This document shows, one piece after another, positions 5,083 through 50,772 of a stretch of 64,000 nt of DNA; the stretch's first letter is position 1, and each line of letters begins with the position of its first letter. The stretch is from a virus. Taxonomy: Duplodnaviria; Caudoviricetes. The stretch spans positions 49,741-113,740 of the IMG/VR virus record IMGVR_UViG_2940228231_000002, one strand, 5' to 3'. The notes under the pieces are model-generated. The model was not told where the DNA came from. It saw only the letters and a list, made by a program, of their open reading frames with translations, and ran no database searches. A program made the position numbers and the translations under genes.

Positions 5083-5925
5083 ATGATAGAAAAAGATAAA
5101 AAAAAGATCAGAAAAGATGATCAGCGAAGATATATAATTGTGCCTTCAGAAATTTGGGAGAAGAGAAATGAATATAGACTTCTTCTGCCGATATTTGTTT
5201 TCTTACAAACTCACAGGAGATTTGATGAAAAAGTAACGGCAAATATGCAAATGTTAATGGGAGCATGTGGGTTCTCATACGAAAATAAGCATAATAGAAA
5301 GAAAAATATTGAGGAAATTTGCACCACATTAGACTATTTGAAAGAGACCTATCACATTGAAAAGTTCACAGCTATTGATAATACGACAGAGGTAGATATT
5401 AGATGTATTATGCCGTCGGCAGTGTTTATCATAGAGATGAATATTTTAATTACAAACTTCAGACAAGATGACAAGTTGTTTATCAAAATATGGGTGGAAG
5501 ACTATGTTGCCATCTGCAATCATTTTTCAAAAAACAATAGGACGCAACTTAGAGGTGCATTAATGTTATATGCTTATGTTGTTCGTAGCATGTTTTGGAA
5601 GAGCTCTAGGAGTTTTGATACAGAGGAAGAACTTTGTATGTATATAGATGAAAACCCTGAGTACTTTAGAAAAGATATACAGTCCATCGCAGATGATCTC
5701 AACATGAGTGGAATGTCTAAATCAACCATAGGACGTCTGCTTAAGCTCTTAGAAAGTGCAGGAGCCCTACACCACAGGACTGGATATGTGATAACTAAAA
5801 AAGGTACGGTGTCTAATGTAGGAACAGTTATGGTGCGCCACACGCCCTATTGGGAAAGAGAATTAGATTCTGCACTGCATAAGGAATTAAATAAGAGAAG
5901 GAGATATAAAAATGCGGAAAATTGA
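5083..5925 (+). CDS. Putative winged-HTH DNA-binding/replication protein
   Basis: C-terminal HTH-like segment IQSIADDLNMSGMSKSTIGRLLKLLE; AGGAG RBS before ATG 5083. Confidence 0.55.
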   Translation: MIEKDKKKIRKDDQRRYIIVPSEIWEKRNEYRLLLPIFVFLQTHRRFDEKVTANMQMLMGACGFSYENKHNRKKNIEEICTTLDYLKETYHIEKFTAIDNTTEVDIRCIMPSAVFIIEMNILITNFRQDDKLFIKIWVEDYVAICNHFSKNNRTQLRGALMLYAYVVRSMFWKSSRSFDTEEELCMYIDENPEYFRKDIQSIADDLNMSGMSKSTIGRLLKLLESAGALHHRTGYVITKKGTVSNVGTVMVRHTPYWERELDSALHKELNKRRRYKNAEN

Positions 5926-6691
5926 AGACAAACTCTTTATTCAGATTCCAAAAGACATTTTTGTTGTCGCACGAAGAAATAAGCTAATATTGCCTCTGTT
6001 TATAGAGATAAAATCATCTCCAAACAATTATGAAACTCAGAAATTAGACTTAAATAAAGTGGTTGAAAAAATTGGCACTCCTGAATCACATTTGTTAGAT
6101 GAGTTGAAATATATAGAACTTGTCAACAGTGCGATTGATAAGATGAGATGTTATGGAGATATTAAATATGCGAAATTTAAGAAGAGCGGAGAATTTTCCG
6201 TAAATAGCTCCGTATCATTTGTCCCACAAACATCTTATTTGAAATATAAAGAACGCCCTTATGTTGTTGGATATTATGAGGATTTTAGGGCGATTATTAA
6301 CTACTGTGAGGCAAATGAAGTGCCTATAATTGGTGAAATGTGCGTGATGTACACTTATATTAAGAAAGCAATTTTTAATGCATCATATAGCTTAGACTTT
6401 GCAGACCCCAGCGATTGGTCTGCATATGTTGTGGAGAATCCTGAATATCGGGTGTTGAGCATTAATACGATTTATAACGGAATAAAGCCTGCAATGGACA
6501 AGGAGCAGATAGATACAGTAATAAAAGCCCTTGATGATTGCGAAGCCCTCCACTATCGAAAGCTAGAGGACGGGAGATACTTATTTGTAAATGACTCAGT
6601 TTACTGGGAATTAGAAATGGATAGTGCTATTAAGAAAGAGCGAGAATTAGAGGACTCTCGCGCGAAAGAAGAAGAAAGGAGTTCTAGTTAA
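5912..6691 (+). CDS. Paralog of the preceding gene (putative DNA-binding protein)
   Basis: Shared motifs ENPEY, ALH, YWE.E.DSA and ED..AI with 5083-5925. Confidence 0.6.
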   Translation: MRKIEDKLFIQIPKDIFVVARRNKLILPLFIEIKSSPNNYETQKLDLNKVVEKIGTPESHLLDELKYIELVNSAIDKMRCYGDIKYAKFKKSGEFSVNSSVSFVPQTSYLKYKERPYVVGYYEDFRAIINYCEANEVPIIGEMCVMYTYIKKAIFNASYSLDFADPSDWSAYVVENPEYRVLSINTIYNGIKPAMDKEQIDTVIKALDDCEALHYRKLEDGRYLFVNDSVYWELEMDSAIKKERELEDSRAKEEERSSS

Positions 6692-7039: not shown

Positions 7040-7078
7040 TACACAGCAGAAAATGACTAGAGATTGCGGGGTGGTTTA

Positions 7079-10000
7079 ATGTTTGCACCTAAACTATACT
7101 CTGTTTACAAAATATCTTTGCGGGATATTGTGGCGGCTGACTATAGGCTGAGTGGTACTAACGACGAGCTGAGAAAATATCGAGTGCGTCAGCAAGATGG
7201 TGGCATATTACGGCAAATACGCCTCATCACTGGAGACGACGGAAAGTTCAATCCATATATTGTGTTCGTCATGTTAGATAAAAAAGACAAAGAGATTATT
7301 GCCCAAATAATCAGGAACGGCTTTTATATCAACGAGACCCACTTCACATTTAGTGAGAGGTCGGCATCTATGACAAGGAGCGGAATGTTAAGTTTTGTAG
7401 ATACGACAATTATTGACGAACTTAATGAGCGTGTGAATATGGACATTGCAGATACTAAAACGGTACTCAGCAAGAAATATGCATACCGAGGATTGTTCCT
7501 AAGCTCCAGTCATATGCTTGAGGGATTCTTCCCCAAGATGATTGTAGTGCCAGACTACTTCCCCACTATAAAAGACCAGCACATCAAATATGCTTATGAT
7601 GATACGCTGCACTTTGTAGATAAAGAAGGTCGGGAACGCACGTGGACACAAAAGAATATCGCCGAGGGAATTAGGGATATTGAAATAAATGCTTTTGACG
7701 GGAGCGGGATTTGTCACCCTGCTATCTCAAGACAGATAGAGCAATTATTGGGAAGCCCTACCCCTGTCAGCAGTTATATTATCCGCGCACCTTACATTAA
7801 GGGCCTTGTACATGAAATTGATTATGAGTCGTTTTTCTTAGAGCGAGGCATCACACAAATCAAAGATATATGGGGCATATATCACGATTTCTCGGAGCCA
7901 ATGATTATTATGACTGAGGGCATGTATAAGGGGCTTGGATATTTCAAGACCTACGGCGATGAGCGAGATTGGGAGCTTTATTGGGAGAAATTTCATAAGT
8001 ATGAGCATTGCATAGGCATTACAAAGTGGAACTTCACCGCCGATGAAGAGCCTGTGTATACCAGAGCAAATTATCAGATACTGCAAGATTTGAAATTGTC
8101 TTATGAGGACTTTAGGAGCTTGTCGGACTACAGTATTGAATGGGCGGATAAAATTATCCACGGAGATCCATTTTATACATACTCCTTCCTCGGAATGTAC
8201 GCCGATAGTCATAAGGCAAAGAATGACTACATCGCTGCTATTCTTAAAGACCCAGAGATGTTAAAGGAGCAGAGCGTGAAAAAATACTTGCTGAACTCAC
8301 TGACAAAATATCGCAATGATATGAAGTGTGGCAAGTTATGGCTTAAGTCAACATTTAAGTTCTTGGCTCCAGATTTAATTATGCTTATGGAATGGATTGG
8401 CGGGCTTGACCCTGTAGGCTCTTTGGAGAGTGACGAATTTTATTCTCATAGTAAAGACGGGGCTTATGAGGGAGAGTTCTTAATTGAACGGAACCCGCAC
8501 ATCTGCCATAGTGAACATACTATATTGACTGGTGTTCAAAATGAAGTAATCAACACATATTGTTCTCATCTTGATAACGTGTGTATGATCAACTGTAAAA
8601 GTATTGTTCCTCAAAAAATAAACGGGGCCGATTACCCCTTAAAAAGTCCACCCTTGCAGGAATGCAAGGTGTGCAACGGTGTGAACTGCTTATCGGCAGG
8701 TGTGGTGGAAGCACATTGTATTGAGCAGGAAATGGCTCATTAATTCCGCTGCTAACTGGGGAGGTATGAATGTCGTGTTCATAATAATCCAGTGCTACAC
8801 TTTAAGCAAATAAGCTTAAAGAAAGTCTAGAGACTATGGGTGATGAGTGTAGCCCAGTACCTGCCCTATTGATACGGGTTTGGGAAGCGTACCGCCACCA
8901 GAACGGTGGAAGATATAGTCCCTATATATCAATATAGGTTTGATGGAGACCTGATTCTCCTGATTGATAATGAAATGATGATGCGAGGTGTTGACAGAGA
9001 TGCTCCAGTGGTTATGGACATCGAAGACAAAATTACAGCCCTCGCTGAAGAGGATACAATAGATAACCGAGTTAACCTAGTGTTACGCACAATAAACTCC
9101 TTAATTGGAGAAACGAGTAAATATTTGCTCCTTTGTATGGCGACATATAATAGCAAACCTCTTTAATTGCTGGAAACCCCTTAGAGCGTTTCTAACTACA
9201 ACATAATCAGAAATGATAAGTGTGAATGTGTAAAAATAGAAACGATTGGGCAATCAGCAGCCAAGCTCCTTAAACGGAAAAGGTTCAACGACTATCGCAT
9301 GTGCGAGTACATTCAAGCGAATGGAAACGGGAGGCATCTCCATGAGATGAAGATATAGTCTGTACATCTACGGAAACGTAGAGAGATGATATTAGCGACA
9401 TCATCGTAACAAAGTAGAATTGTGCAACAGGTTATCACAATAAGCAACCACGAGACGAGGAAACAAGAAAGAAATACGAGTCTTATGTGGATTTATTAAG
9501 CATAATTAACGGAAAGGTGATAAATGCGTAGGCTGTCACCCTATGTGGCGACACATAGAAAACAAGTTGGTGAACTCGTAAATGCGAGGTGTGCATCTTA
9601 CAGTTGGAATCGCAGGAAATGGCGATTTGAAGATGTGCTAACAGGGAAAAAGATTATCTCAATCCTGTGCCAAGCCTGAGCAGAGATGCTCTTGAAGGTC
9701 AAGAGACTAAGATACACGGGCTTTTTAAGTCTATGAAATCTGTACATGGTGAGTGAAATTCTCTCCGTGGAAGCGCCAACCTCTCACACTTGTGAGATGA
9801 AGATATAGTCCAAATGAGACTACGCCAAAACTGGAGTGTTGTACAACATTCCAAAACACATTGCAAAATATAGTAAGCCCCTGCCCTACTTCATGAAATA
9901 TGCGTCTGAGTATTATAAGGGATTGAATACTTTTTCAAACGCAAACAGCAACATGAATAGACTTTGTAAAGATATTGAGAAATGGAGCAAGAAACAGAGA

Positions 10001-10474
10001 TACACTGGGCTAGATAGAAACTTCGACTACAAAATAATGATAGACGATTCTATTGATATAGAGCCAGAGCTCCAAGAAGAAATAAATAAATTGTATTTAG
10101 AATTCTGTAAAGAAATGGCGGACTTGCACCATGACCAGACAAGCGTCAGAAAACGTGGAGACGAGTCCTTGTCTAAGTATAATGCTATGAACTTTACAAT
10201 TAACTGGGGATATTACTATGACACATATCGTGAAAGAAGCGAGAAAATTTGTGGGGATAAGAAAAAATTAGCAAACATGGCTGTTCGTGCCTGCTATGAA
10301 TTTCACCCGCAAAAGAAGAACTCAAAATTTGCTTGGTGCGTCGCTGGAGATGGTATTGTTGAGAACTTAAAACAACGGTCTCACCCACTCCCGCTTAGAG
10401 ACGATGACGGCGAATATGAGTATCTTGGGAAAAGATATACAATGAAACAAATAGAGGGGGTTGATGAAGAATAA
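7079..10474 (+). CDS. yonO: YonO-like single-subunit DNA-dependent RNA polymerase; spliced from exons 7079-8632, 8939-9118, 9418-9521 and 9817-10474 (~831 aa)
   Basis: Motifs ERSASM.R, FDGSG, IRAPYIKG and ERNPHI. Joining the exons restores catalytic NGAD|FDGD, LIGETS|NCATGYHNK and GKVI|DYAKTG. Synteny (RNAP, HU, terminase) matches SPbeta. Confidence 0.88.
8633..8938 (+). mobile_element. Group I intron 1 in the RNAP gene (306 nt, ORF-less)
   Basis: Exon ends in U and intron ends in G; P7 elements AGAGACTATG (~8829) and AAGATATAGTCC (~8910); removal gives in-frame ADFDGD. Confidence 0.88.
9119..9417 (+). mobile_element. Group I intron 2 in the RNAP gene (299 nt, ORF-less)
   Basis: P1 GAGU/GCUC with a U.G pair; core P AATTGCTGGAAA, Q AATCAGCAG, R TTCAACGACTA, S AAGATATAGTCT; terminal G. 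Confidence 0.92.
9522..9816 (+). mobile_element. Group I intron 3 in the RNAP gene (295 nt, ORF-less)
   Basis: P1 GGUGAU/GUCACC; P10 GCGUAGGCU pairs with the 3' exon AGACUACGC; R CAAGAGACTA, S AAGATATAGTCC; terminal G restores the frame. Confidence 0.9.
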
Positions 10475-10551: not shown

Positions 10552-11328
10552 TTGCTCGCAAAGTGGTTTTACGAGAATGGGGCGAAAACGGTATTAGATA
10601 TAAGAAACAAGCTCAAGGAATGGGCGACAGAAAATGATTTCTATTTAACGGTGGCTATGAATCCAGTAGCCACCAGAGTAATAACTGGGGACATGAAATT
10701 GCTTGGCACCTCCCCCATCTACATAAACGATGAGGATGTCAAGCTTATTAAAAACAGATTCGACACTGAAAAAGAAAGGCTTGTGGCATTGTCCATCCTG
10801 TGCTATGCGAAGGCATACGCAGACAAGAAGAAAGAATTCAGATTGTCGAAGAACGCATTCTCATTATGGGTTGGCATTGATAAGAAAACGACGAGAAAGT
10901 ATATCAATGAAGCTATAGATGTGGAGTATATTACTCTTTGCGATAAGGGTTCAATTAACTCATGGTATCAAACTACTGTAGTGAGTCAGCTTGGCACATA
11001 TAAGATTGAGGCCCCGCTAGAAAATAGTGGGCAGTATGAACTTGTGGATAATAATATCTATGAATTGTACGATTTAATATTTGAGGGCATTGATCAGACG
11101 CAAGAAGTTTGGTATGGCATACCAGAATATAATGACTGGTATCAGATTAGTAATATGGGGAGAGTAAAAGTTTGCGAGCGAATAGTTGGCGATAGAGTTT
11201 TTAAGTCGAAAATTCTTAAGCCATATAAAAGTAGCAGCGGAAAAGAATATATTTATATGTATTCTGATCAAAAAAAGCAAGAAAGGGTCTGCCTCGAAAA
11301 ACTAAAGCGAGTAATTGCAACGGATTAA
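10552..11328 (+). CDS. Hypothetical HTH-like protein with a C-terminal NUMOD4 motif (frame is open from 10468)
   Basis: C-terminal EVWYGIPEYNDWYQISNMGRVK is NUMOD4-like; no HNH motif follows. Confidence 0.7.
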   Translation: MLAKWFYENGAKTVLDIRNKLKEWATENDFYLTVAMNPVATRVITGDMKLLGTSPIYINDEDVKLIKNRFDTEKERLVALSILCYAKAYADKKKEFRLSKNAFSLWVGIDKKTTRKYINEAIDVEYITLCDKGSINSWYQTTVVSQLGTYKIEAPLENSGQYELVDNNIYELYDLIFEGIDQTQEVWYGIPEYNDWYQISNMGRVKVCERIVGDRVFKSKILKPYKSSSGKEYIYMYSDQKKQERVCLEKLKRVIATD

Positions 11329-13422: not shown

Positions 13423-13499
13423 GCTGGTATAGTTCAGTTAGGTAGAATACTTGTTTTGTACTCAAGATGTCTGAGGTTCAAATCCTCATGCCAGCTCCA
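13423..13499 (+). tRNA. tRNA-Thr(TGT)
   Basis: Acceptor GCTGGTA/TGCCAGC; loop TT-TGT-AC; U discriminator; CCA. Confidence 0.88.
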
Positions 13500-13545
13500 A
13501 AATAAAACGATGATGGAGGCAGAGCCTTCTACCCTTTCCCCATTT

Positions 13546-13576
13546 GTTGAAGTAGCTCAATGGTGGAGCAACTGAC
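13546..13576 (+). pseudogene. 5' half of a tRNA (acceptor, D-arm, start of the anticodon stem)
   Basis: GTTGAAG TA GCTC AATGGTG GAGC A ACTGAC; no matching 3' half found downstream. Confidence 0.5.
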
Positions 13577-14218
13577 AAACTGGCAGAAGAACAGTCGGCA
13601 GGATTTCTCCTAAGCCTGTATCCAAAACGGAGATATAAGTACCTATAAAAATATATACTAAAGTAACTCAGTGCAAACATCACTAGTTAGGTGGTGCTGA
13701 GGCATACTGGTTGAGTCAGTTATGTAAAAGACGGATACGTCTTTTCTGTAGCTGCGCGTCTTTAAGCGATTTCTGACGTGTAGGCAAAACCGAAACTCAA
13801 GGTATGGCACTGCGTTTACTGCAATCAAACGCACGAGATGAATGGGCAACGCAATAGAAAGAGTGGTTAAAAGCCACTCCGAATCCAAGTTAGGTTTTAG
13901 TTGGTGACTGTAGCAAACCTTGGAAATACCAACAAGTTGTTTCCCAGTGAAAGAGAGAAATCTCTGTATAACATTCGTCGAAGTACGAGTAGGGTGGGGA
14001 TTTTATAATATTGCTTTATCAAACGAATATAAGCACAAAATAAAATTTTCTGAATTAATCCTGAAAGTTGAGGGTAAGCAACCCCTCCAAAGTTTAGCTC
14101 TTTGATGGGCGTGGTAAAGAAGTCACTAGGGTAGCTCCCTTAGGCTCAGACTTTATCTCCTTTGTGGCAGAATATGGTTGAAAGTAAGCAACAGCAGGCT
14201 GAAAAGACACTTTCTGTA
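13577..14218 (+). ncRNA. Large structured ncRNA, GOLLD/ROOL-like (boundaries approximate)
   Basis: ~640 nt between tRNAs with no credible ORF and many helices (GAGTGGTT/AGCCACTC, GTTGGT/ACCAAC, CCAAG/CTTGG, GAGGGT/ACCCTC). GOLLD and ROOL RNAs are known from phage tRNA clusters. Confidence 0.55.
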
Positions 14219-14241
14219 TATATTTTTATAGGTACTTTTGA

Positions 14242-14316
14242 AGCAGGGTGGAGCAGTGGTAGCTAGTCAGGTTCATACCCTGAAAGTCGCAGGTTCGAGT
14301 CCTGCCCCTGCAACCA
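14242..14316 (+). tRNA. tRNA-Met(CAT), initiator-like
   Basis: TCAGG-TTCATAC-CCTGA arm; 1:72 mismatch; CCA. Confidence 0.9.
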
Positions 14317-14378
14317 ACACCTTTCTACCAAGTGTAGAGAGGGTCTGTCGAAGAACTTCTAGTCCTTCGACCTTTATG

Positions 14379-14455
14379 GGAGAGGTAGCTCAGATGGAAG
14401 AGAAAAACTAGTATCACTAGGTGTGTCGTAGGTTCGAATCCCACCCTCTCCGCCA
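14379..14455 (+). tRNA. Atypical tRNA-like element (nominal anticodon ATC)
   Basis: Good acceptor GGAGAGG/CCTCTCC, T-arm and CCA, but an aberrant anticodon arm (CTAGT-ATC-ACTAG). Confidence 0.55.
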
Positions 14456-14483
14456 GAAGATATATTGTGATTTCATTTAGCCT

Positions 14484-14577
<94 letters not shown>

Positions 14578-14584
14578 ATCATGT

Positions 14585-14660
14585 AGGGGTATAGCTCAGT
14601 TGGTAGAGCTGTGGTCTCCAAAACCACGTGCCGTGGGTTCAAGTCCTACTGCCCTTGCCA
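14585..14660 (+). tRNA. tRNA-Trp(CCA)
   Basis: GTGGT-CTCCAAA-ACCAC; canonical cloverleaf; CCA. Confidence 0.93.
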
Positions 14661-14816
14661 CTTAGTAATATATTTGGAATAAAATCCACAATGGCTCCAG
14701 CTCAGACTAACGCCAAATAAGGAGTTCCTTGTAGGTGGTGCATGGACAACAACCACTCACGCATATGGGAGTATAACCCTTTTAGTCGGGGGAAAAGACC
14801 GTAAGCCCATAATTTT

Positions 14817-14841
14817 GCCAGACATCTGTCTGGCTTTTTTT
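14817..14841 (+). terminator. Intrinsic terminator
   Basis: GCCAGACA-TC-TGTCTGGC followed by a T-run. Confidence 0.7.
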
Positions 14842-14917
14842 GGTTCTGTAGTGTAAATGGTTAACACATCAGGGTTCATCCTGAAAAGTCCGAGTTCGAT
14901 CCTCGGCGGAATCACCA
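14842..14917 (+). tRNA. tRNA-Glu(TTC)-like with a 6-nt anticodon loop
   Basis: Glu-type acceptor GGTTCTG/CGGAATC; arm TCAGG-GTTCAT-CCTGA; CCA. Confidence 0.65.
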
Positions 14918-41112: not shown

Positions 41113-44100
41113 ATGGGAAATGCAATAAAAAGTGGCTATCAAGTCACAGTCGGGTTAGATACCACGGAAATCCCGAATTATAAAGATGAAATAAATACAC
41201 AGTTGAAGAATATGTCAAAAGACATCAAACTCACTGTAAAGCCCGATCTTGCGGGTATTGACACTCTTAAAGCTGCTATTGAGCAGTTAAAAAAAGAGCA
41301 GATTGTCAAACTCACACTAGACGAATCCGAGGCAATAGCCTCAGTTAATAAAATCTCAGATACCTTTACAAAGGCATTCACCAGTAATTTTAGTGCAAAG
41401 GCGTTTGATGGTTTTGCAGGTGCAATGAAAAATGTCAGCACTGCGTCACAAACAGTTGCAACCGCTGCTGAAAAAGCCAAGACTGCGGTTCAACAGATTG
41501 GCAGCGTTTCAGGAGAGCAGGTTACTGATACAAATAGGTTAACTAGTAGTTTGAAAAAGTTCGCCACTGCACTTAGCGATATGGGTGGGGCTGAAGGTGG
41601 ATTTGAGGCGCTTAAAACAAACGCTGCTAATATAAGTAGCATAATACAGTCTCTTACAACTAATGAAAAAAAGATTGATATTGGTTCGGGTGCAGTTGTT
41701 AAAGACTTAGATAAAATAAGAAACAATCTTGATGGTATTAGTAGAAAAATCAAAGACTTATCAAAAATGGATATTGATACTGATTCTATAGAAAAAGTAG
41801 CAACTGTTAAAAAATCGAAAACCACTAAAAAGGAAGAGGCAAAACCACTTGGCGAGAACATCAATACTGGTGCAGATGAAGCCAGCAAAAAGCTAGTGAG
41901 TGTGCATGATACTTTAATTGATATTAGCAAAGCAATTGAAGCAATGCCAACGCTTGGAATTACAAAAAGTGCTGTCGATGCAAACAAAGAACTAGGAAAT
42001 GTACACAACTCTTTAATTGGTCTTGGTAAAACAATTGAAGGTATGCCAAAGGTACAAGTTGTTAAAGCTTCGACCGAGAAGCAGGCAACAGGTGGTGGCC
42101 CTAAGAAGTCTGAAGAAGAGGCGGTTCTTTCTGTTAAAAAGAAGCAGAACGATGCAGACGCTGAAAACTTAAGAATACAGGCAGAAGCTAAGGCACAGGC
42201 TAACGAAGAAGCTAGAATTTATACAGAAAAACTAACAATAGCAAAAGAACTAAATGCAGAATATACCAAATCAATTAAGGCTGAAATTGGAAAGAGTGAA
42301 ATTAACAACGTAGAAGAGCTGAAAGCCATCCGAGAAATCACCGAGGCTAATAAGAAGAAATACAACGATTATTTAAACATAACACAATTAAATAAAGAAG
42401 ATTTAGATGTTTTGCAGAAAAAGGTGTCTACCGCTGAAGAAGAGGTTAGAACCGCTCAACAACTGGCAGAAGCTAAGCGAAAGGATAGCTTAAACAAGGA
42501 CTATAGCAATGCGAATAAAACTCTACTCGGATTGGAAGACTCGCTTGTTAGAAAACGTAAGACTCTAGAGGGTACCGATAAGTTTGACAGCGATGAATAT
42601 GCTAAGCAGATTGTGGAATTAAATGAAATTGTTGATTTACGCAATAGAATCAAAGAACTTCAAGATACTGGAGGCGAGCCAAGCGTTTCAGAAGTTGAAG
42701 AGCTAAAGAAGAGAACCGAGGCTTTAAAGCGGTATGAAGAAGGGCTTACAAAGGTCACAAATGTTCGTAATATAGATGCAAAAGAACAAAGTAAATTAAC
42801 ATCAATCAGCCAAGCAATTACCAAAGACTTAAATGAAAATGGAAAAGCTATTAAGAAGATAGAACCGTTATATCAGAGATATATAACGCTTCAAAACCAA
42901 ATTTTTAATCAGACTATAAGTGGAGACGCAGCAAGAGAAGAACTCGCCAAGATTAGAATGGAAGCAGAAAAAGCTGGCATAACAACCAATACCCTTTTGG
43001 GACGGTTAAAGCAACTGTATAACAATAGAGGAGCTTCTATCATTGCATCTAAAGCAGTCCTTTTACTAGGTAGAGCTTTTCGTGATGTTTATCGAAATGT
43101 TGTAGATGTTGATACTGCAATGACTGAGTTGCGAAAAGTAACAAACGCAACTAGCCAAGAGTATAATGCCTTCTTAGATGGTGCTGGCGACAGAGCTCAG
43201 AAACTCGGTGCCACGCTGAAAGACGTTGTTTCGTCAAGCGCAGACTTCGCTAGATTAGGATATAATATTCCACAAGCATCTGCACTGTCTGATACTGCAC
43301 TCGTCTACTTAAATGTAGGTGACGAAGTTGAGAGCATAGATGATGCAACGAAGTCTATTATAAGTACAATGCAGGGTTTTGGCATAGAAGCTGAAAACTC
43401 GATGAGCATTGTTGATAAATTCAACCAAGTTGGTAACGAATTTGCAACCACATCAGGTGGCATAGGTGAAGGTATGTTGCGTTCAGCAGCAGCACTACAC
43501 GCCGCTAACAACTCACTAGATGAGTCAATCGCACTGTTCACAGCGGGACAGGAAGTTGTACAAAACGCTGAAAGTATGGGGACGGTACTTAAAACCACTT
43601 CCATGCGCATCAGAGGGGCCAAGACCGACCTAGAAGAGGCTGGTGAAGACACTGATGGTATGGCTACATCTGTCTCTAAATTAAGAGACGAACTGGTCGC
43701 CCTCACAGGTGGCTTCGATATAATGAAGAACGGTGGACAGGAATTCAAGTCCACGTATGAAATATTAAAGGGAATTTCTGATAGTTGGGAAAAGATGACA
43801 GACGTATCTCAAGCCAACGTATTAGAACTTCTAGCAGGAAAACGAAACGCTAACGCCCTTGCTGCGATTATCAAGAACTTCGATCAAGCAGAAAAGGTGC
43901 TAGCAACCTCTCAGAATAGTGCAGGCAAACAAAACTGCCTGAATGTACAGAAATGTGCATAAAGAACAGATCTAAAACCAGTAAATCCTAAAGCTCAACT
44001 ACTACAGTAGGGATGAAATATGCTGCTACGAATGTAACGAAAGTAAAACAACAGTTGAGATGATATATGGACAAAATCCTAAGTATCGCTACAATGGAAG

Positions 44101-47100
44101 CTTGGTCGCAAAATCTCGAATAGAGACGAGTCAAACGACTATCCCATAGGACTTCGGTCAATAGGAGTACGACGCAAATTTATGGCGTGGGTGAGAATCC
44201 CTTAAATGGAAAAGGTCTGCCCTTAACACGTTATGGTGAAGGTGAAGAAATAGTCTTAACGTCATACGAAAGTATGAGTTTATTATCAAATATAATAAAT
44301 GCAAGAGTTATGACCTTGCAAAAAATAATGAGTGCTCTGAGAGAAAACGAGATTTATCTCGATTCTATCCAAGGTAAGACAGATAAACTAACAGCCACAT
44401 GGCAAGTATTATCAAACAATTTATTGTCTTCAGATGCTGTAAAAGTTGTTATCGACGGCTTTAATCTAGCACTGACGACTGTAAATGCCCTCGTCGATGC
44501 CCTCGGACTATTGCCAGGATTGATTGCCGCTATCGGCACTTCATGGGCGAAAGCTAATAAAGTAGGTGAAGAATGTGCCCTCTTACCACAAGCCGTATAG
44601 GCAAGTGTTAGGAAGTTGATGACCGTCAATCATCAATACTTAATTTCCAAATTGCTGGGACTAGCTAAAGTTCGCAGACTAAAGCGGAACTGGAAACGGT
44701 AAACGTAAATGTGGGGAAACCCAGAAAAAACATGCGAAATGGTGTAAGCTGAGATAAAAGCCCTCACGGGTGCTAACCACCACAACAATGCTAAATCAGC
44801 AGCCAACTCCCTGCCCTACTATTTGTAGAATGGGAAAGTGCCCAACGACTGTAAGGAAATTGGAGCCCGTAAAGGACTTCTAAGAGACAGTCTGAACATG
44901 TGCAGAAATTGCACAGAGTAGAGTTGAAGTACTCTACCGCCGTAATTACAATAAAACACAATAAGATATGATTAAACACAAATAAATATGAAGAAATAGA
45001 AAAAATGGTTGAAAATTAAACTAAGTGGTGTATAATATAAATACAAAGAAAGAGTCATAAACGACTGGCTCAATTTGAATAGTTAAAGAAAAAACCACTC
45101 ACACTGCCAAGTCGAGAGTGGTTTTTCTTTACTTCGAGCGCTTTGAAAAGACTTGACTCTGTTGAATATTGGTGTATAATATAAATACAAAGAGCTACCG
45201 ATAGACGGTTAGCCAAAATGTTTAGTTGAAAAATAACCGAACCTTTGGACTTGGGCGGTTATTTTTTATTGCTCGTATATGTCAATATCAGTACAATTAA
45301 CGTAGATACGCCAATCACTACTGACAGAGTTTCATAACTCGTCAACTTATCACCTCCCTCCGTTTATGCGATTAGGACTTGCCAAAAGGCGTACCTTACT
45401 GCAATGATAACGTGGAGGCTAACCGCCTACCGCTTTGGTAGCTCAGGTATATTATAGCGCAACATTCAAGTCTTGAAAAGGAAAAAAGTTTCACAAAATA
45501 TGAGCGAGTTTTAGGAAAGATTTCACAAAATATGAATGAGTTTTAGATAAGAAAAAAGAGAGATGAAGGTCTCTCTTTTCATATGCAAAACGTACAACAT
45601 TGGAGAGTGTGCGCGTTTGCCAATATTATTTACTGCTCAGCTCCCATGAGTGGCCGCAGTTGTTGCAGACTTTGATCATTTTGTTGGCGCCAATCACACC
45701 AGCAACCGCACCAACGTCGAGGAATCCCGTGATCGCAGTGGTCGCTATCGCCCTGCCCCACTTCATGCCCCGCTTCTGTACGAACAGGTCTTGGGAATTG
45801 CATTTTGGACAGTATGGCTTACTAGGGTCGTTTCCAGCAGCGATTTCAGAAGCACGCCACTCTTCGTATTCTTTTTTATTTTGTTCATCTTTAAAGGCAA
45901 TCATAGCGTCATACGCTTCTTCACTATATGAATCGCCGAGAACTTTAGATGCAATAAATTTAAATTGACCATTTATATCGTGATCAAATAGGTGCTTTTC
46001 TGTAGAAGAGTTGTATATCTTAGACCACTGATTTGAGGTATGTCCAGAATCTACAAAATCACTACCACAAAATATACATTTACCATCTATTGCACTATAC
46101 TTCTCAAAATCAGGACTCATAATACCCTTGCCACATCCTTTGCAGACAGCAAGATGTTTTTTATCAATCTTATCATATACACTAACCATATAGACCTCCA
46201 TAGTTTATCAGTGTTATTATATTGATTATATCATATCTAAAAATAAAATCAAGGATCGTAATTACGGTCAGTAGCAGATTGACAATCTGTGAAAGTAACA
46301 GTTTGACATTCAGAGACAAAACAAATGACATAAGTGGAAAAGGCATTAAAGGAAAATTTGAAGCTTTATCACACAATTGGGGCGGAAGCATAACTGGATA
46401 TTTCAGCGGAAAAAACGGAAGTGCTGGGGTTGATGCGAGTTTAGCTGAAGTTGAGGTAATAAAGAAAATCAATGAGGAGTTTTCAAAAGGCGTTAAACCA
46501 GTAGATGCACTAGCGAATGCTGGTGGAAAACTCAAAGACAGACTAGAAGAACTTGTTAAAAATTCAGATGGAGTCCAGATGTCCATTGTGGAAGCTGGAA
46601 AAGGAGCTAAAGTAGGTGCAACAGGATTCCAACTACTAAAACTTCAAGTTGCTTCTACAATGACTGCGATGAAAGCTATGGCAAAGAGCTTCCTTATTTG
46701 GTTCGCTGTCATGGAAATCATCAACCTAGTCATAAAAGGCATCAAGTGGATGTTCGATACTGCACCGACCAAGAATCATATCCGTGAATGGGCAGAAGAA
46801 GCCCGTACTGCACTTGAAGACACTCGTAAGGAAGTAGATTCTGTAACATCAGAGCTTGAGACTATGAGGGACAGGATTGCAGAACTTGAGGGAATGGGAA
46901 ATCTTACTCTGACGGAACAAAGTGAGCTTGACCAACTAAAACAGCAAAATGCTGAACTATCAAAGAAATTGGCAATCCTTAAAGCCATTGAAGCTGAACA
47001 AAGCAGAGAGGCTTCTAGGAAGAGCTTTGCGGCTGCCGAGTCTTATGGTAAAAGTGAAGTCAAATACTCTGCTGCTACAGGTAGAGGTGGAGAGGTCGTT

Positions 47101-50100
47101 GCCCCTAATGTAGAATCAGACGCCATGTATAAAGACCTTGAACGCTATGTTGAACTATATAAAGAAGCTCAAGAAGAAATCGACAAGCTCAGTCCTTCCA
47201 GTGAAAAAGATAGAAAGAAATTTGAAGAACTGACCAAAGAAGCTGAAGGATATAAATCTTTCATTGTAGAGCTCTCTCAAGGCGTTTCAAAAGAGCTTGA
47301 AGGCGTCAACCGAGATAATCTATCAGCAGACCAATTACAAAAATATGATCAAATGATCAACGAGATTCAAAGTAGTTTGATAAATGTTGGCGTTTTAAAT
47401 ATGGGAGACATATTATCATCTGCTTTAAGTTCGAAAGAACTACAAGCACTTTCTGCCAACATGCAAGACCTTGCAGACTCTCAAAAAGAGATAAATGAAA
47501 ACTCAATTACAGAAGCAATTGGGCAAGATGCAGTTAATCTTCTAAATCAATACGGAATATCTATTGAGCAGTTGGTTGAAAATGTCGAAGCCCTTAGAGG
47601 GATTAGTGGTACTGTTGATAATGTATCGAAAAGTGATAAATTTAAAGACCAAGATATTAATGGGAAAATAAGTGCTATTACATCCGACAAAGACTTCAAT
47701 ATAGACATCACTTCTGCGACAAGTGCGCTTGGCAAAGACTTTGTTAAAGCGTGTGAAGAAGCGGGAGTTTCAGCAGAAGAATTGGTTGAGTGGTTAAAAT
47801 CAGTTCAGAAACAATCCGAAAAAACATCTCTTAGCGGGATGGTTGAAGAGTTTGCAGACTTTGAAGAAAAGATACAAACAGTTGTTGGTGCTATAGACGA
47901 ATTCAAAGAAAATAGCGGAAATGTGTCAGCCTCCTCTATTAAGGATGTTGCCGATGCATTCGAGTCTATGTCTGGCACTAAAGAATTTGAGAACATGATC
48001 AAGGTACTCTCTAATTCAGCATCTTCTATTGAAGAAGTTGAAAGTTCGATGAGTAATTTGGTCAATGCGTACTTACAGTCTAGCAATGTAATGGCAGACT
48101 TGAATGAAGGGACAAAAGAGTTATATATTAACAGACTCAAAGCCCAAGGTATAGCGAATGCAGAGGTTGTTGTAGAATATCAGTTGGCTAAAGCCAAATA
48201 TATGTCAGCAGACGCTAGTGATGCTCAACGTGCTGCCGCATTAGAAGAAATGCAGGCTATTATTTTAAACACAGGAGCGTTAGACAGGAATGCGGCGGCG
48301 GCATTAAGTGCTGCTGAGATGACGAGTCTGTTCGCAGGATATCAACAATTGGCGGCTGGAAATAACTTTGCATCTGTAGTTTCAAACCATGCAGTTGCAC
48401 TTGGAAAAGTAGCATCTGCTGCTGGCCCTGCTGCTGCTAATTTAAAAAAATATGTTGATATTGTTAGTGAAATCGCATCAATCAAAGGAATGCTTTCTGG
48501 TAAAAAACTAGACAACAGAGTAAAAACACGCCTAAATAGCCGACTTAAAGGACTTAGTAAAACATTAGATCGATATGCAGAAGAGGCAGAAAAAGAGTTT
48601 AACAACTTATTTGTTGCTGATATAAGCTTCAGTAGCGGTGGTGTTGCTGGTTCTGGAGGTTCTGGTGGTTCTGGCGGTAGTAAAGGCACATCAGCCTCAG
48701 ACAAGCGTAAAAATAAATATGACTCGGCGAAAGAGAAGCTAGACCATAAGCTGAATATGAACTACATTTCATATGCGACCTACTACAAACGCCTAGAAAA
48801 ACTCGGCAAGAAATACCTAAAAGGGCAGAAAGGTAATGCGGCTGATTACCGCAAACACCTCGAAGAGCTCGCAGATGTTAGAAAAGCGGCGTTCGACAAG
48901 GAAGAAGCTCAGAACGATAAGAAATACGCCAAAGGGCAAATCAGCCTGCGTACTTATCATAAGAGAACGCTCGCCTCAATTAAAAAGTGGCTCAAAACCA
49001 GCAAGGCAAATCAGGAAGATTATGCCGAAGCAATGGATGCACTTCAGAAGAAGATAAGCGACGCATGGGGCGACAGAATAAACAAACAGCAACAGCAGAT
49101 TGACCGCTTTGGCATCACTGGTTGGATTACCCCTGGCAAGAGTGAGGCAGACTATTGGCGTGACCAATTAGCCCTCTTAATCGAAGACCAAGGTAAAGGC
49201 TTGTTTACAGACACTGACGCTTTCCTAGACCTCTACTATGAAATACTAGAAAAGATTAAAAACGCCGAGGCAGAGTTGGCAGACAATGAGCTAGATAAGA
49301 TTGAGAAGAAAATCGGCAATGTTGACGACCTAGTAGATATGGTCTCCAATATGCTCAAGCAAAGACTAGAAGACCAGATTGACGCCCTTGAAGAGCAGAT
49401 AGATAAGTACAACGAAATCGTTGACCTTAAGAAGAAATCTCTCGACATAACAAGAGACGAGCTTGACTATCAGCGCGAACTTAAGGAGCAGAACGAGGAA
49501 CTGACCAAACTGCAAGCTAAGGCGGCGGTGCTAGCTCTTGACACCTCTCGTGAAGGTAAGGCGAAATACGCAGCCCTCATGGAAGAAATCAGGGCTAAAC
49601 AGCAGGATATTTCTGACAAGCAGTCTGACCACGCTTATGACGGCACTGTAGACGCACTCGACGAAGCTACTGAAAAGTACGAAAAAGAGATGCAGAAGCA
49701 GATTGATGACCTCAATGCGAAGATGGAGAATAATGGTGAGTGGCTACAGGGTGTTTATGACTACATCCAATACACAGACCCTTCTGCCCTGCTGGATGAG
49801 TTATTGGCGTATAACTATAAATACGGCGACGGACTCAACAGTACAGTGGAAGACATGTGGGAAAGAACTGAGCCCCTACTCCAATCTTATCAGTATGACA
49901 TTCGTACCATTATTGACGAACTACGCAGACTTAAGTTAGAGCAAGAGAAGCAAATCGAAGAAGCTAAATCCAATAAGAATGATAAATTCGCTGACTTGAC
50001 TCTTGAGCAAACCAAAGAAGCAGTCTCTGCCAGAAATACTAGAACAAACAGCGACGCTGACAACCTTGCCCTTCTTGCGAGAATCAAGCAAGGTAAATGG

Positions 50101-50772
50101 AACGGCGGAAAAGCTTGGTATGACTCAGAGACTAATCTAATCTGGATGGGTGATCATGGAGAGAAGAAAATGACTGCCAGTGCCTACTGGCTCATTAAAG
50201 ACATGAAAGCCATAAACAATGATACTAGCAAAACCAAAGCCCAGAAGCAAAAAGAGCTCGACCCACTACTGGAAGAGTTGCACGGGTACTATGGTTATCC
50301 AAACGCTCACTTAGATTGGAACAAGACAACTAAGAAGTTTGAACTGCACCGTAAGAAAGGAACTGCGGCCGCATATAAAGTATTCCACAGTGGACTTGGT
50401 GGCGGTTTCGTTGGCGATACATATATGCCAACAAAGAAGCAGAGCGAGACCTATGCCCTACTCAAGAATGACGAACTTGTGCTAAACAAGAACGATCAAG
50501 ACAGAATTGGGCTACAGCTTCAAACACTTAGCATGTTGACTGAATCTATCAAGGGCATCTTGCCTACAAACAGCGTTTCAAACAACAATCAATCAACTGG
50601 TATTGAGATTAATATACCAATAAACATCGATGGCAATGCCACGGGCGATACTGTGAGAGCCTTGAGGAGTGCCAGCAATCAAATCGCAAACGAGACACTC
50701 AGCAAAGTTACTGAGGCTATGAATCAGCGTGGATATAATTCGCGCGTTGGCTCAAATGCGATGAGAAGATAA
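41113..50772 (+). CDS. Tail tape measure protein; spliced from exons 41113-43926, 44331-44567 and 46306-50772 (~2505 aa)
   Basis: TP901-type core (DTAMTELRKVT, DKFNQVGN, LAGKR); splicing restores NSAG|SALRENEIYLDSIQGK and KVG|TFRD; long coiled coils. Confidence 0.88.
43927..44330 (+). mobile_element. Group I intron 1 in the tape measure gene (404 nt, ORF-less)
   Basis: P1 CAGGC/GCCUG; P10 ACU/AGU; R AAACGACTAT, S AAGAAATAGTCT; terminal G; frame restored. Confidence 0.85.
45009..45130 (+). ncRNA. Promoter-sRNA-terminator unit 1 inside the intron (orphan antitoxin-like)
   Basis: TTGAAA...TGTATAAT promoter; ~90-nt ORF-free transcript; terminator AAAAACCACTC...GAGTGGTTTTT. Confidence 0.5.
45153..45270 (+). 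ncRNA. Promoter-sRNA-terminator unit 2: antisense RNA overlapping the toxin 3' end
   Basis: TTGACT...TGTATAAT promoter; shared bidirectional terminator AAAATAACCG...CGGTTATTTT. Confidence 0.6.
45259..45345 (-). CDS. Putative type I toxin (holin-like toxin, 28 aa)
   Basis: MTSYETLSVVIGVSTLIVLILTYTSNKK*; TTG start; GGAGGTG RBS; one TM helix and a basic tail; TATAAT upstream at 45451-45456. Confidence 0.75.
   Translation of the reverse strand: MTSYETLSVVIGVSTLIVLILTYTSNKK
45626..46189 (-). CDS. Zn-ribbon membrane-associated protein (intron cargo, antisense)
   Basis: CKGC/CIFC and CPKC/CNNC pairs around a Gly-rich hydrophobic segment; own promoter (46225-46252), GGAGG RBS and terminator (45554-45580). 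Confidence 0.8.
   Translation of the reverse strand: MVSVYDKIDKKHLAVCKGCGKGIMSPDFEKYSAIDGKCIFCGSDFVDSGHTSNQWSKIYNSSTEKHLFDHDINGQFKFIASKVLGDSYSEEAYDAMIAFKDEQNKKEYEEWRASEIAAGNDPSKPYCPKCNSQDLFVQKRGMKWGRAIATTAITGFLDVGAVAGVIGANKMIKVCNNCGHSWELSSK

Follow-up and report, generated by a model that had tools for sequence, protein, structure and literature searches.

So far as we know, group I introns of bacteria and phages are held to be either empty or endonuclease-bearing, IStrons being the one known exception. The element described here is a group I intron of 1,738 nt (44568-46305, hereafter intron B), the second of two introns that interrupt the tape-measure gene of a virus of the Caudoviricetes (Duplodnaviria). 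It lies in a 64,000-nt stretch of IMG/VR record IMGVR_UViG_2940228231_000002 (positions 49,741 to 113,740; hereafter the window, whose numbering is used for all features of this locus). A preliminary description of the window had read the intron as a cargo bay, a neutral landing pad in which a prophage carries lysogeny-expressed accessory genes inside an essential gene. In our analysis, intron B holds a constant zinc-ribbon gene together with variable cassettes in the loop of a peripheral helix, probably with expression in the lysogen and splicing in the late phase. The whole intron family occupies one codon in at least eight phages, and combines a conserved opposite-strand gene without nuclease features with a stretch that collects cassettes.

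Prophages of the Bacillus cereus group carry the group I introns TMP-IVS1, IVS2 and IVS3 in their tape-measure genes (Tourasse and Kolsto, 2008; PMC2504315). Intron B and its relatives resemble these introns in their conserved tape-measure site, in the occurrence of several introns per gene, in the existence of intron-plus and intron-minus alleles and in that some lack a complete endonuclease gene. However, by their description the TMP-IVS introns come with or without (partial) endonuclease genes, and no antisense gene, toxin-antitoxin (TA) module or small RNA (sRNA) is reported in them (PMC2504315). Mobile phage introns as a rule have their open reading frames (ORFs) in loops extending from peripheral helices (PMC3984707), and T4 td/I-TevI and SPO1 I-HmuI are like intron B in carrying foreign coding DNA in a terminal loop, with the core intact and with expression signals of its own (PMC3984707). 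They differ from it in that the resident gene of the window's intron lies on the opposite strand, has no classical nuclease motif and is accompanied by unrelated cassettes. IStrons, in which an insertion sequence of the IS200/IS605 type is joined to a group I intron, shelter a passenger that is not an endonuclease (PMC4227781). Intron B shares with them a passenger near the intron 3' end that would be rendered harmless to the interrupted gene by the ribozyme; unlike IStrons, it has no transposase or TnpB, is tied to one fixed codon of one gene family and carries a zinc-ribbon gene plus variable cassettes. Searches of open-access full texts yielded no description of a bacterial or phage group I intron that contains an antisense gene, a type I TA module or sRNA cassettes.

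Prophage morons, known from the work of Hendrix and colleagues, are autonomous promoter-gene-terminator units expressed from a repressed prophage. The cassettes of intron B have a moron-type layout, each with its own predicted sigma-A-type promoter and terminator inside the late region; whereas morons lie between genes, these cassettes lie inside an essential gene and would be harmless only through splicing. Type I TA loci with convergent, 3'-overlapping RNAs include Hol-Tox (PF16935), par/Fst of pAD1, and TxpA/RatA and BsrG/SR4 of B. subtilis prophage elements. A candidate module in the window resembles these loci in its small hydrophobic peptide, strong ribosome-binding site (RBS), predicted convergent 3'-overlapping sRNA, bidirectional terminator and prophage location, and differs from them in being placed inside an intron loop.

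A full group I core had been proposed at the 5' end of the element, and this was borne out, the decisive evidence being comparative. RF00028 matched intron B at 44583-44916 with 46.0 bits (E 8e-10), and homologous copies in other phages scored 64.5 (L018), 60.4 (L036) and 60.7 bits (L043). A core alignment of seven sequences (A4) was made, to which P1 and the P3 pseudoknot were added by hand, and RNAalifold recovered P2, P2.1 and P4-P9.1 from it. Over 103 pairs, standard pairs were found in 95.1% of cells, compared with 38-44% for slid partners, and both sides changed in 59 of these pairs; none of 500 shuffles reached these values. Covariation was also seen in five of the seven pairs of the P3 pseudoknot. 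In addition to the helices listed in Table 1, the core contains P2, P2.1, the P5 region, P6 and P8, and the ribozyme comprises 430 nt, of which 382 nt form the 5' part and 48 nt the 3' part. An alternative P1 formed through CUUACC was rejected because that segment belongs to the covarying P2. An exact 17-mer of the guide region was present at 14 loci in viral and metagenome collections; at none of them was there a group I intron or any longer stretch of similarity, and they were set aside as chance matches.

The splice sites of intron B were placed at 44567/44568 and 46305/46306. In all copies the upstream exon ends in GGU, which pairs with GCC of the guide and leaves a U-G pair at the cleavage site, and intron base 1 (G in the window, A in the other copies) pairs with the U preceding GCC. 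The 3' splice site had been fixed by a 6-bp P10, and the comparison strengthens this assignment: the guide segment directly 5' of GCC pairs with the start of exon 3 (GAAUGU:ACAUUC), L039 and L041 have AAAAUGU:ACAUUUU and AAAAAAUGU:ACAUUUUUU, respectively, with G-C to A-U changes compensated in both, and L035 has a 9-bp version (AGAGAAUGU:GCAUUCUCU). The terminal G of the intron (omega-G) is 46305. Ligation of the exons is in frame in all copies; in the window it joins WAKANKVG to TFRDK, and the intron-less genes of L011 and L012 are contiguous at the same point (LIKNKG-IFTVD). The 10-bp helix said to bracket about 1.3 kb was also recovered. It is kept in every copy, encloses a loop of 1,308 nt in the window, and shows a compensatory C-G to U-A change (TTAT/ATAA) across the 1,083-nt loop of L041. 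From these features, we infer that 44568-46305 is spliced out, with in-frame ligation of exon 2 to exon 3. Placed as it is in the terminal loop of this peripheral helix, the insert should leave the ribozyme undisturbed.

In the ORF listing and the Pfam scan, the tape-measure gene was seen as three frames (41113-43962, 44187-44600 and 46222-50772), the first of which contains PhageMin_Tail (PF10145, E 2e-22). With both introns removed, the three exons are all open and give a product of 938 + 79 + 1,488 = 2,505 amino acids (aa). Exon 3 is 34% identical over 1,476 aa to its homologue in G066, a genome of the same family. In the phage collection, Megablast and tblastn turned up nothing closely related to the region or to exon 3, and the tape-measure relatives returned were distant ones only.

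Intron B is one of eight copies found at a single tape-measure codon, the other seven being in other phages. The exon 3 homologue of G066 is preceded by a group I intron (64.5 bits), which shares with that of the window the 5' end GGT/rAAGAATGTGCCCTCTTACC, the helix CCGTAATTAC/GTAATTACGG and the 3' end AAAGTAACAG..G/ACATTC. Six more copies (L035, L036, L039, L041, L043 and L055) were reached through relatives of the loop-encoded protein. All copies follow the same W(A/L)K.N.(V/I)G codon, and the loops of the other measured full copies are 857, 1,703 (L035), 640, 892, 1,083 (L041) and 628 nt long. The zinc-ribbon ORF is antisense in every copy and starts about 30-70 nt inside the 3' arm, while the spacer from the 5' arm to the end of this ORF ranges from 19 to 1,146 nt. 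An all-versus-all BLAST of the loops showed that similarity is confined to the zinc-ribbon ORF. Since this ORF alone is shared and the spacer DNA is unrelated, the loop consists of a conserved resident gene and an adjacent zone of independent acquisitions. The comparison of related phages for variable cargo that the preliminary description had proposed thus yielded eight copies with unrelated extra DNA, and its picture of a cargo bay holds in part: the cargo varies, lies in a peripheral loop and includes no recognisable endonuclease, but the zinc-ribbon gene, which had been counted as cargo, is conserved in all eight copies. On the evidence of these copies, it is the conserved resident of the intron family and not interchangeable cargo.

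The variable DNA of at least three copies contains sRNA-like units and small hydrophobic toxin-like ORFs. Those of L035 (44 aa) and L041 (32 aa) have ribosome-binding sites, are toxin-like by composition only and matched no Pfam family; the L035 loop also encodes a 76-aa zinc ribbon that could be assigned to no family. In the copy of the loop in L044, a 360-aa ORF (1224-2306, + strand) follows the zinc-ribbon gene in the same orientation. This cargo is larger than that of the window, and it gave no match in Pfam or PADLOC. A more divergent intron occupies the same tape-measure codon in L008 (from about 2365 onward; GGT/AAAAAATATGCCCTTTTAC), has no CCGTAATTAC helix and precedes an ORF (5283-5990, - strand) whose antisense zinc-ribbon product includes a SHOCT domain. 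Elsewhere in or near the same tail genes, L036 (571-904 and 1-444) and L018 (11590-12444) have additional group I introns as well as endonuclease genes of the classical types (GIY-YIG/NUMOD, NUMOD4). As L036 and L018 carry both, canonical homing elements coexist with the zinc-ribbon intron.

The antisense zinc-ribbon gene is present and has a near-consensus promoter; its probable start is the ATG at 46189, behind the RBS GGAGG, and not 46201. The protein (P0001) is homologous to the intron ORF of G066 (E 3e-10). A word-based protein search with P0001 returned only itself, and a profile including the G066 homologue detected 72 relatives at E <= 1e-3. Members of this family are typically 160-180 aa long. 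They carry a CxxC...CxxC ribbon at the N-terminus and, after it, a conserved EW...Y helix; the middle is helical, and the C-terminal ribbon (CPKCGS...C..CGHKW) is usually split by a Gly/Ala-rich hydrophobic stretch. Only eight Cys residues and a Pro, a Ser and a Gly are invariant in the family, with a Trp nearly so; across the family, no conserved acidic, His or Asn candidates for an active site were found. The Pfam matches of P0001 were weak zinc-ribbon matches only, and no informative family and no nuclease family was found for it in Pfam, NCBIfam or PADLOC. Its PHROGs matches were restricted to unknown-function and zinc-finger families. The family falls in PHROGs 2546 and 3845, and two PHROG endonuclease families were matched by single other members of the family, not by P0001. 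None of the loop ORFs of the window matched HNH, GIY-YIG or LAGLIDADG, in agreement with the earlier reading of the insert, or the His-Cys box, and a domain scan of these ORFs found no transposase domain (TnpA/TnpB).

The AlphaFold model of P0001 (predicted local distance difference test score, pLDDT, 80; predicted template-modelling score, pTM, 0.60) contains two ribbons and three helices. Foldseek searches of PDB and BFVD and a wide VIA-align search returned no informative fold, the best Z being 3.1, with generic TFIIS/Rpb9-type ribbons. The C-terminal ribbon of P0001 is split into CPKC and CNNC by about 45 residues, and the Kyte-Doolittle 19-residue maximum in this segment is 1.74. An Atlas feature search gave a weak lead to LITAF-like ribbons (score 0.84), and PF10601 had no Pfam match. 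Because of this hydropathy and the LITAF-like lead, P0001 is more likely to be a membrane-associated accessory protein than a nuclease. Among ten genomic contexts of the family, nine have the gene antisense to a large gene for a tail or tape-measure protein, and in eight of these it is inside this intron. The ninth, P0019 (L054), is adjacent and antisense to a gene of 2,313 aa, and no intron motifs were found at that locus. In L053, the family member is free-standing and has an integrase and a helix-turn-helix regulator nearby.

The elements listed in the preliminary description, including two promoter-sRNA-terminator units and a 28-aa toxin-like gene, were all located, with offsets of a few bases at most from the positions given there, and promoters, terminator hairpins and a Hol_Tox match were found for them. 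In all, 16 promoter-like sites were detected, compared with 5.5 +/- 2.5 in shuffles, and four of them score 10-11/12. The RNA predicted for sRNA unit 1 has a folding energy of -27.3 kcal/mol (z -4.8); this unit is an orphan, as no toxin partner, other copy or complementary site was found for it elsewhere in the genome. The RNA predicted for sRNA unit 2 is about 90 nt long, and the terminator of this unit shares sequence with the stop codon of the toxin ORF, which runs on the other strand. Copies of the unit with 85-87% identity occur elsewhere in this genome, on contigs C3 and C5. The 28-aa ORF matched Hol_Tox (PF16935) with 26.8 bits, compared with a cut-off of 23.3, and a six-frame scan of the genome gave 21.9 bits for the window copy and 24.5 bits for a second copy on C3. 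The module of toxin and sRNA unit 2 on C3 is 87% identical to that of the window; the toxin ORF, the RBS, the two promoters and the common terminator are undamaged, with 87-94% identity between the two copies, and the ORF is kept on C3. The layout of a toxin ORF and a putative convergent sRNA that share a bidirectional terminator resembles that of a type I TA system, and the pair is predicted to be, most likely, an addiction or stress module of the prophage. A host regulator may bind the 32-nt repeat that lies upstream of the toxin promoter. A similar 32-nt array was observed in L004 (1504-1577; G000:C22), upstream of a chromosomal gene whose product is secreted and Ala-rich.

As the window is embedded in a 428.7-kb contig of a 2.17-Mb genome (99% complete), its phage genes belong to an integrated element, and the carrier of the tape-measure gene is an integrated, large, siphophage-like prophage. 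Judging from promoter consensus, the host sigma-A RNA polymerase would transcribe the four cassettes in the lysogen, each insulated by its own terminator. Since each unit ends at its own terminator, we propose that little antisense RNA would reach the ribozyme core. During lytic growth, a late transcript, possibly made by a YonO-like polymerase, would run through the whole intron, the 10-bp helix would return the 3' splice site to the core, and splicing would restore the 2,505-aa tape-measure protein. The late sense RNA would also include both sRNA sequences, would be antisense to the toxin and zinc-ribbon mRNAs, and could silence them late in infection. Should the cassettes be expressed, splicing would allow a prophage to conceal genes active in the lysogen within an essential late gene, where imprecise deletion would kill the phage, and the locus would give a new answer both to where accessory genes are kept and to why some endonuclease-less introns persist. 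In practical terms, gene callers fragment such tape-measure genes, Rfam overlooks some of the introns, and surveys of type I TA systems would skip introns.

Several observations weigh against this reading. Two strong intrinsic terminators (about 45098-45131 and 45232-45272) are co-oriented with the tape-measure gene, and because of them a transcript made by the host polymerase would be truncated before exon 3; the late transcript must cross both, which is the chief objection to a neutral loop, and the neutrality of the loop is therefore uncertain. The RF00028 score of intron B is below the gathering score of 50 bits, and a default Rfam scan missed the intron. P1, with three exon base pairs and one intron base pair, is essentially invariant across the copies and thus has no covariation support of its own. 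The Hol_Tox score falls under the cut-off (21.9 bits) if the TTG start is not read as Met. As for the membrane role of the zinc-ribbon protein, it rests on hydropathy and the weak LITAF lead, the hydrophobic insert of P0001 is unmodelled (pLDDT below 50), and the segment is missing in some family members.

With regard to the terminators, the same prophage encodes a YonO-like single-subunit RNA polymerase. Its gene is in at least four pieces, interrupted by a group I intron (Rfam, 104.6 bits) and apparently by further insertions, and is 68% identical to an intact 889-aa RdRP-family (PF05183) protein encoded beside the G066 copy of the intron. YonO transcribes the late genes of SPbeta as one operon, and the flap domain of multi-subunit polymerases is listed as required for hairpin-dependent termination (PMC5467207). 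By analogy, the YonO-like polymerase may ignore the loop terminators, and read-through of this kind would be a reasonable way out of the terminator problem.

Apart from the reading favoured above, the zinc-ribbon protein could itself be a mobility factor, that is, a new homing endonuclease or a nuclease recruiter acting on intron-less alleles, with the TA module and the sRNAs hitch-hiking. Its gene is the sole one present in all eight copies and lies at the usual place of a homing endonuclease gene, intron-plus and intron-minus alleles occur side by side among related phages as expected for a mobile intron, and one family member stands on its own, a frequent state of homing endonuclease genes. 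The His-Cys box endonucleases of eukaryotes are likewise small, zinc-binding and sometimes antisense. However, the family has no conserved His, Asp, Glu or Asn for an active site, P0001 matched neither a nuclease family nor a nuclease fold, and an antisense gene with a sigma-A-type promoter is better suited to being expressed apart from the late lytic programme than to homing when phages co-infect a cell. We regard such a mobility factor as quite unlikely. The zinc-ribbon protein could also be what keeps the intron family going, the product of a new class of intron-borne gene, either as a lysogen-made, membrane-anchored block on DNA entry by related phages or as a non-canonical homing factor, with the loop as a recurrent capture site for TA and sRNA units; a group I intron would then be a small accessory-gene island within an essential gene. 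This idea is tentative and rather doubtful. If a block on DNA entry were true, the gene would be tied to the tape-measure gene and always be inherited with a compatible allele.

The cassettes of the variable zone might also be inert debris of illegitimate recombination, tolerated in a neutral loop, unexpressed and useless. The orphan state of sRNA unit 1, which has no partner or target anywhere in the genome, the unrelated extra DNA of the different copies and the resemblance of the 32-nt repeats to a host intergenic fragment are consistent with this, but decay is not what the toxin module displays: its ORF, RBS, promoters and terminator are intact and closely similar to the C3 copy. All four promoters are near-consensus, and toxin-like small ORFs with an RBS arose independently in at least two other loops. 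Debris is, in our judgement, an improbable explanation. It would be highly improbable, moreover, that intron B no longer splices, owing to its 1.3-kb loop or to the terminators, and that the prophage is defective, with tape-measure pieces that are pseudogenes or separate proteins. The sub-threshold Rfam score, the sense-strand terminators inside the loop and the unusual C before the 5' splice site of intron A would fit such a state. Against it, the core helices, guide, P10 and terminal G are intact and match those of copies with larger loops (L035, 1,703 nt), and the three exons keep long open frames, with 2,505 aa in total.

Table 1. Positions of the features of the tape-measure locus and of the polymerase gene in the window
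Feature	Position	Strand	Details
Tape-measure exon 1	41113..43926	+	938 aa, PhageMin_Tail; 3' end fixed by tblastn against intron-less homologues (NSAG/SAL)
Intron A	43927..44330	+	404 nt, no ORF; smaller, group I-like; bounds by homologue alignment
Tape-measure exon 2	44331..44567	+	79 aa, ends WAKANKVG, codon GGT; tblastn matches L005-L012
Intron B catalytic core	44568..44949	+	Rfam, RNAalifold, covariation count
P1	44565-68/44576-79	+	Core helix of intron B
Internal guide sequence	44571..44579	+	GAAUGU pairs with 3' exon (P10); (U)GCC pairs with exon end GGU (P1)
P3	44642-48/44855-61	+	Core helix of intron B, pseudoknot
P4	44653-58/44796-801	+	Core helix of intron B
P7	44847-52/44887-92	+	Core helix of intron B
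P9	44897-916	+
P9.1	44918-37	+	Followed by 5' arm of long-range helix
Long-range helix, 5' arm	44940..44949	+	CCGTAATTAC, 10 bp
sRNA unit 1	45009..45131	+	Predicted promoter 45009-45036, TTGAAA-16-TATAAT, 11/12; RNA of about 90 nt, 5' hairpin, intrinsic terminator
sRNA unit 2, candidate antitoxin RNA	45153..45272	+	Predicted promoter 45153-45180, TTGACT-16-TATAAT, 11/12; 5' hairpin
Hydrophobic toxin ORF, Hol_Tox (predicted)	45259..45345	-	28 aa; TTG start after RBS GGAGGTGA
Toxin promoter (predicted)	45479-45451	-	10/12
Two 32-nt tandem repeats	45487..45550		Just upstream of toxin promoter; TTTCACAAAATATGAGCGAGTTTT
Zinc-ribbon gene terminator	45553..45580	-	11-bp stem, then T run
Two-zinc-ribbon gene (P0001)	45626..46189	-	187 aa; 191 aa from 46201
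Zinc-ribbon gene promoter (predicted)	46225..46252	-	TTGATT-16-TG-TATAAT, TG-extended; directly inside 3' arm
Long-range helix, 3' arm	46258..46267	+	GTAATTACGG
Intron B 3' tail	46268..46305	+	AAAGTAACAG motif and terminal G; conserved in all eight copies
Tape-measure exon 3	46306..50772	+	1,488 aa; its initial ACATTC takes part in P10
YonO-like single-subunit RNA polymerase gene	7067..10459	+	Same prophage; group I intron 9109-9383

The other intron of the gene, intron A, matched RF00028 with 25.3 bits in its 3' part (44166-44278). Its bounds were set by tblastn against intron-less relatives from Clostridia metagenome bins, in which NSAG-SAL(R/A)ENE is uninterrupted. The 5' splice site so placed follows GGC and gives a C-G pair in a CAGGC/GCCUG P1 rather than the canonical U-G; the sole canonical alternative (after AAT, 43917) would remove conserved SAG residues. 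Intron A was absent from all five close relatives checked. In one related tape-measure gene (L010), an insertion of 428 nt occupies another site in the PhageMin_Tail region (10723-11151); this insertion had no Rfam match at E < 0.01 and may be another divergent intron. Elsewhere in the prophage, a ROOL RNA (299 bits, 13643-14228) was found within a cluster of six tRNAs (13423-14914).

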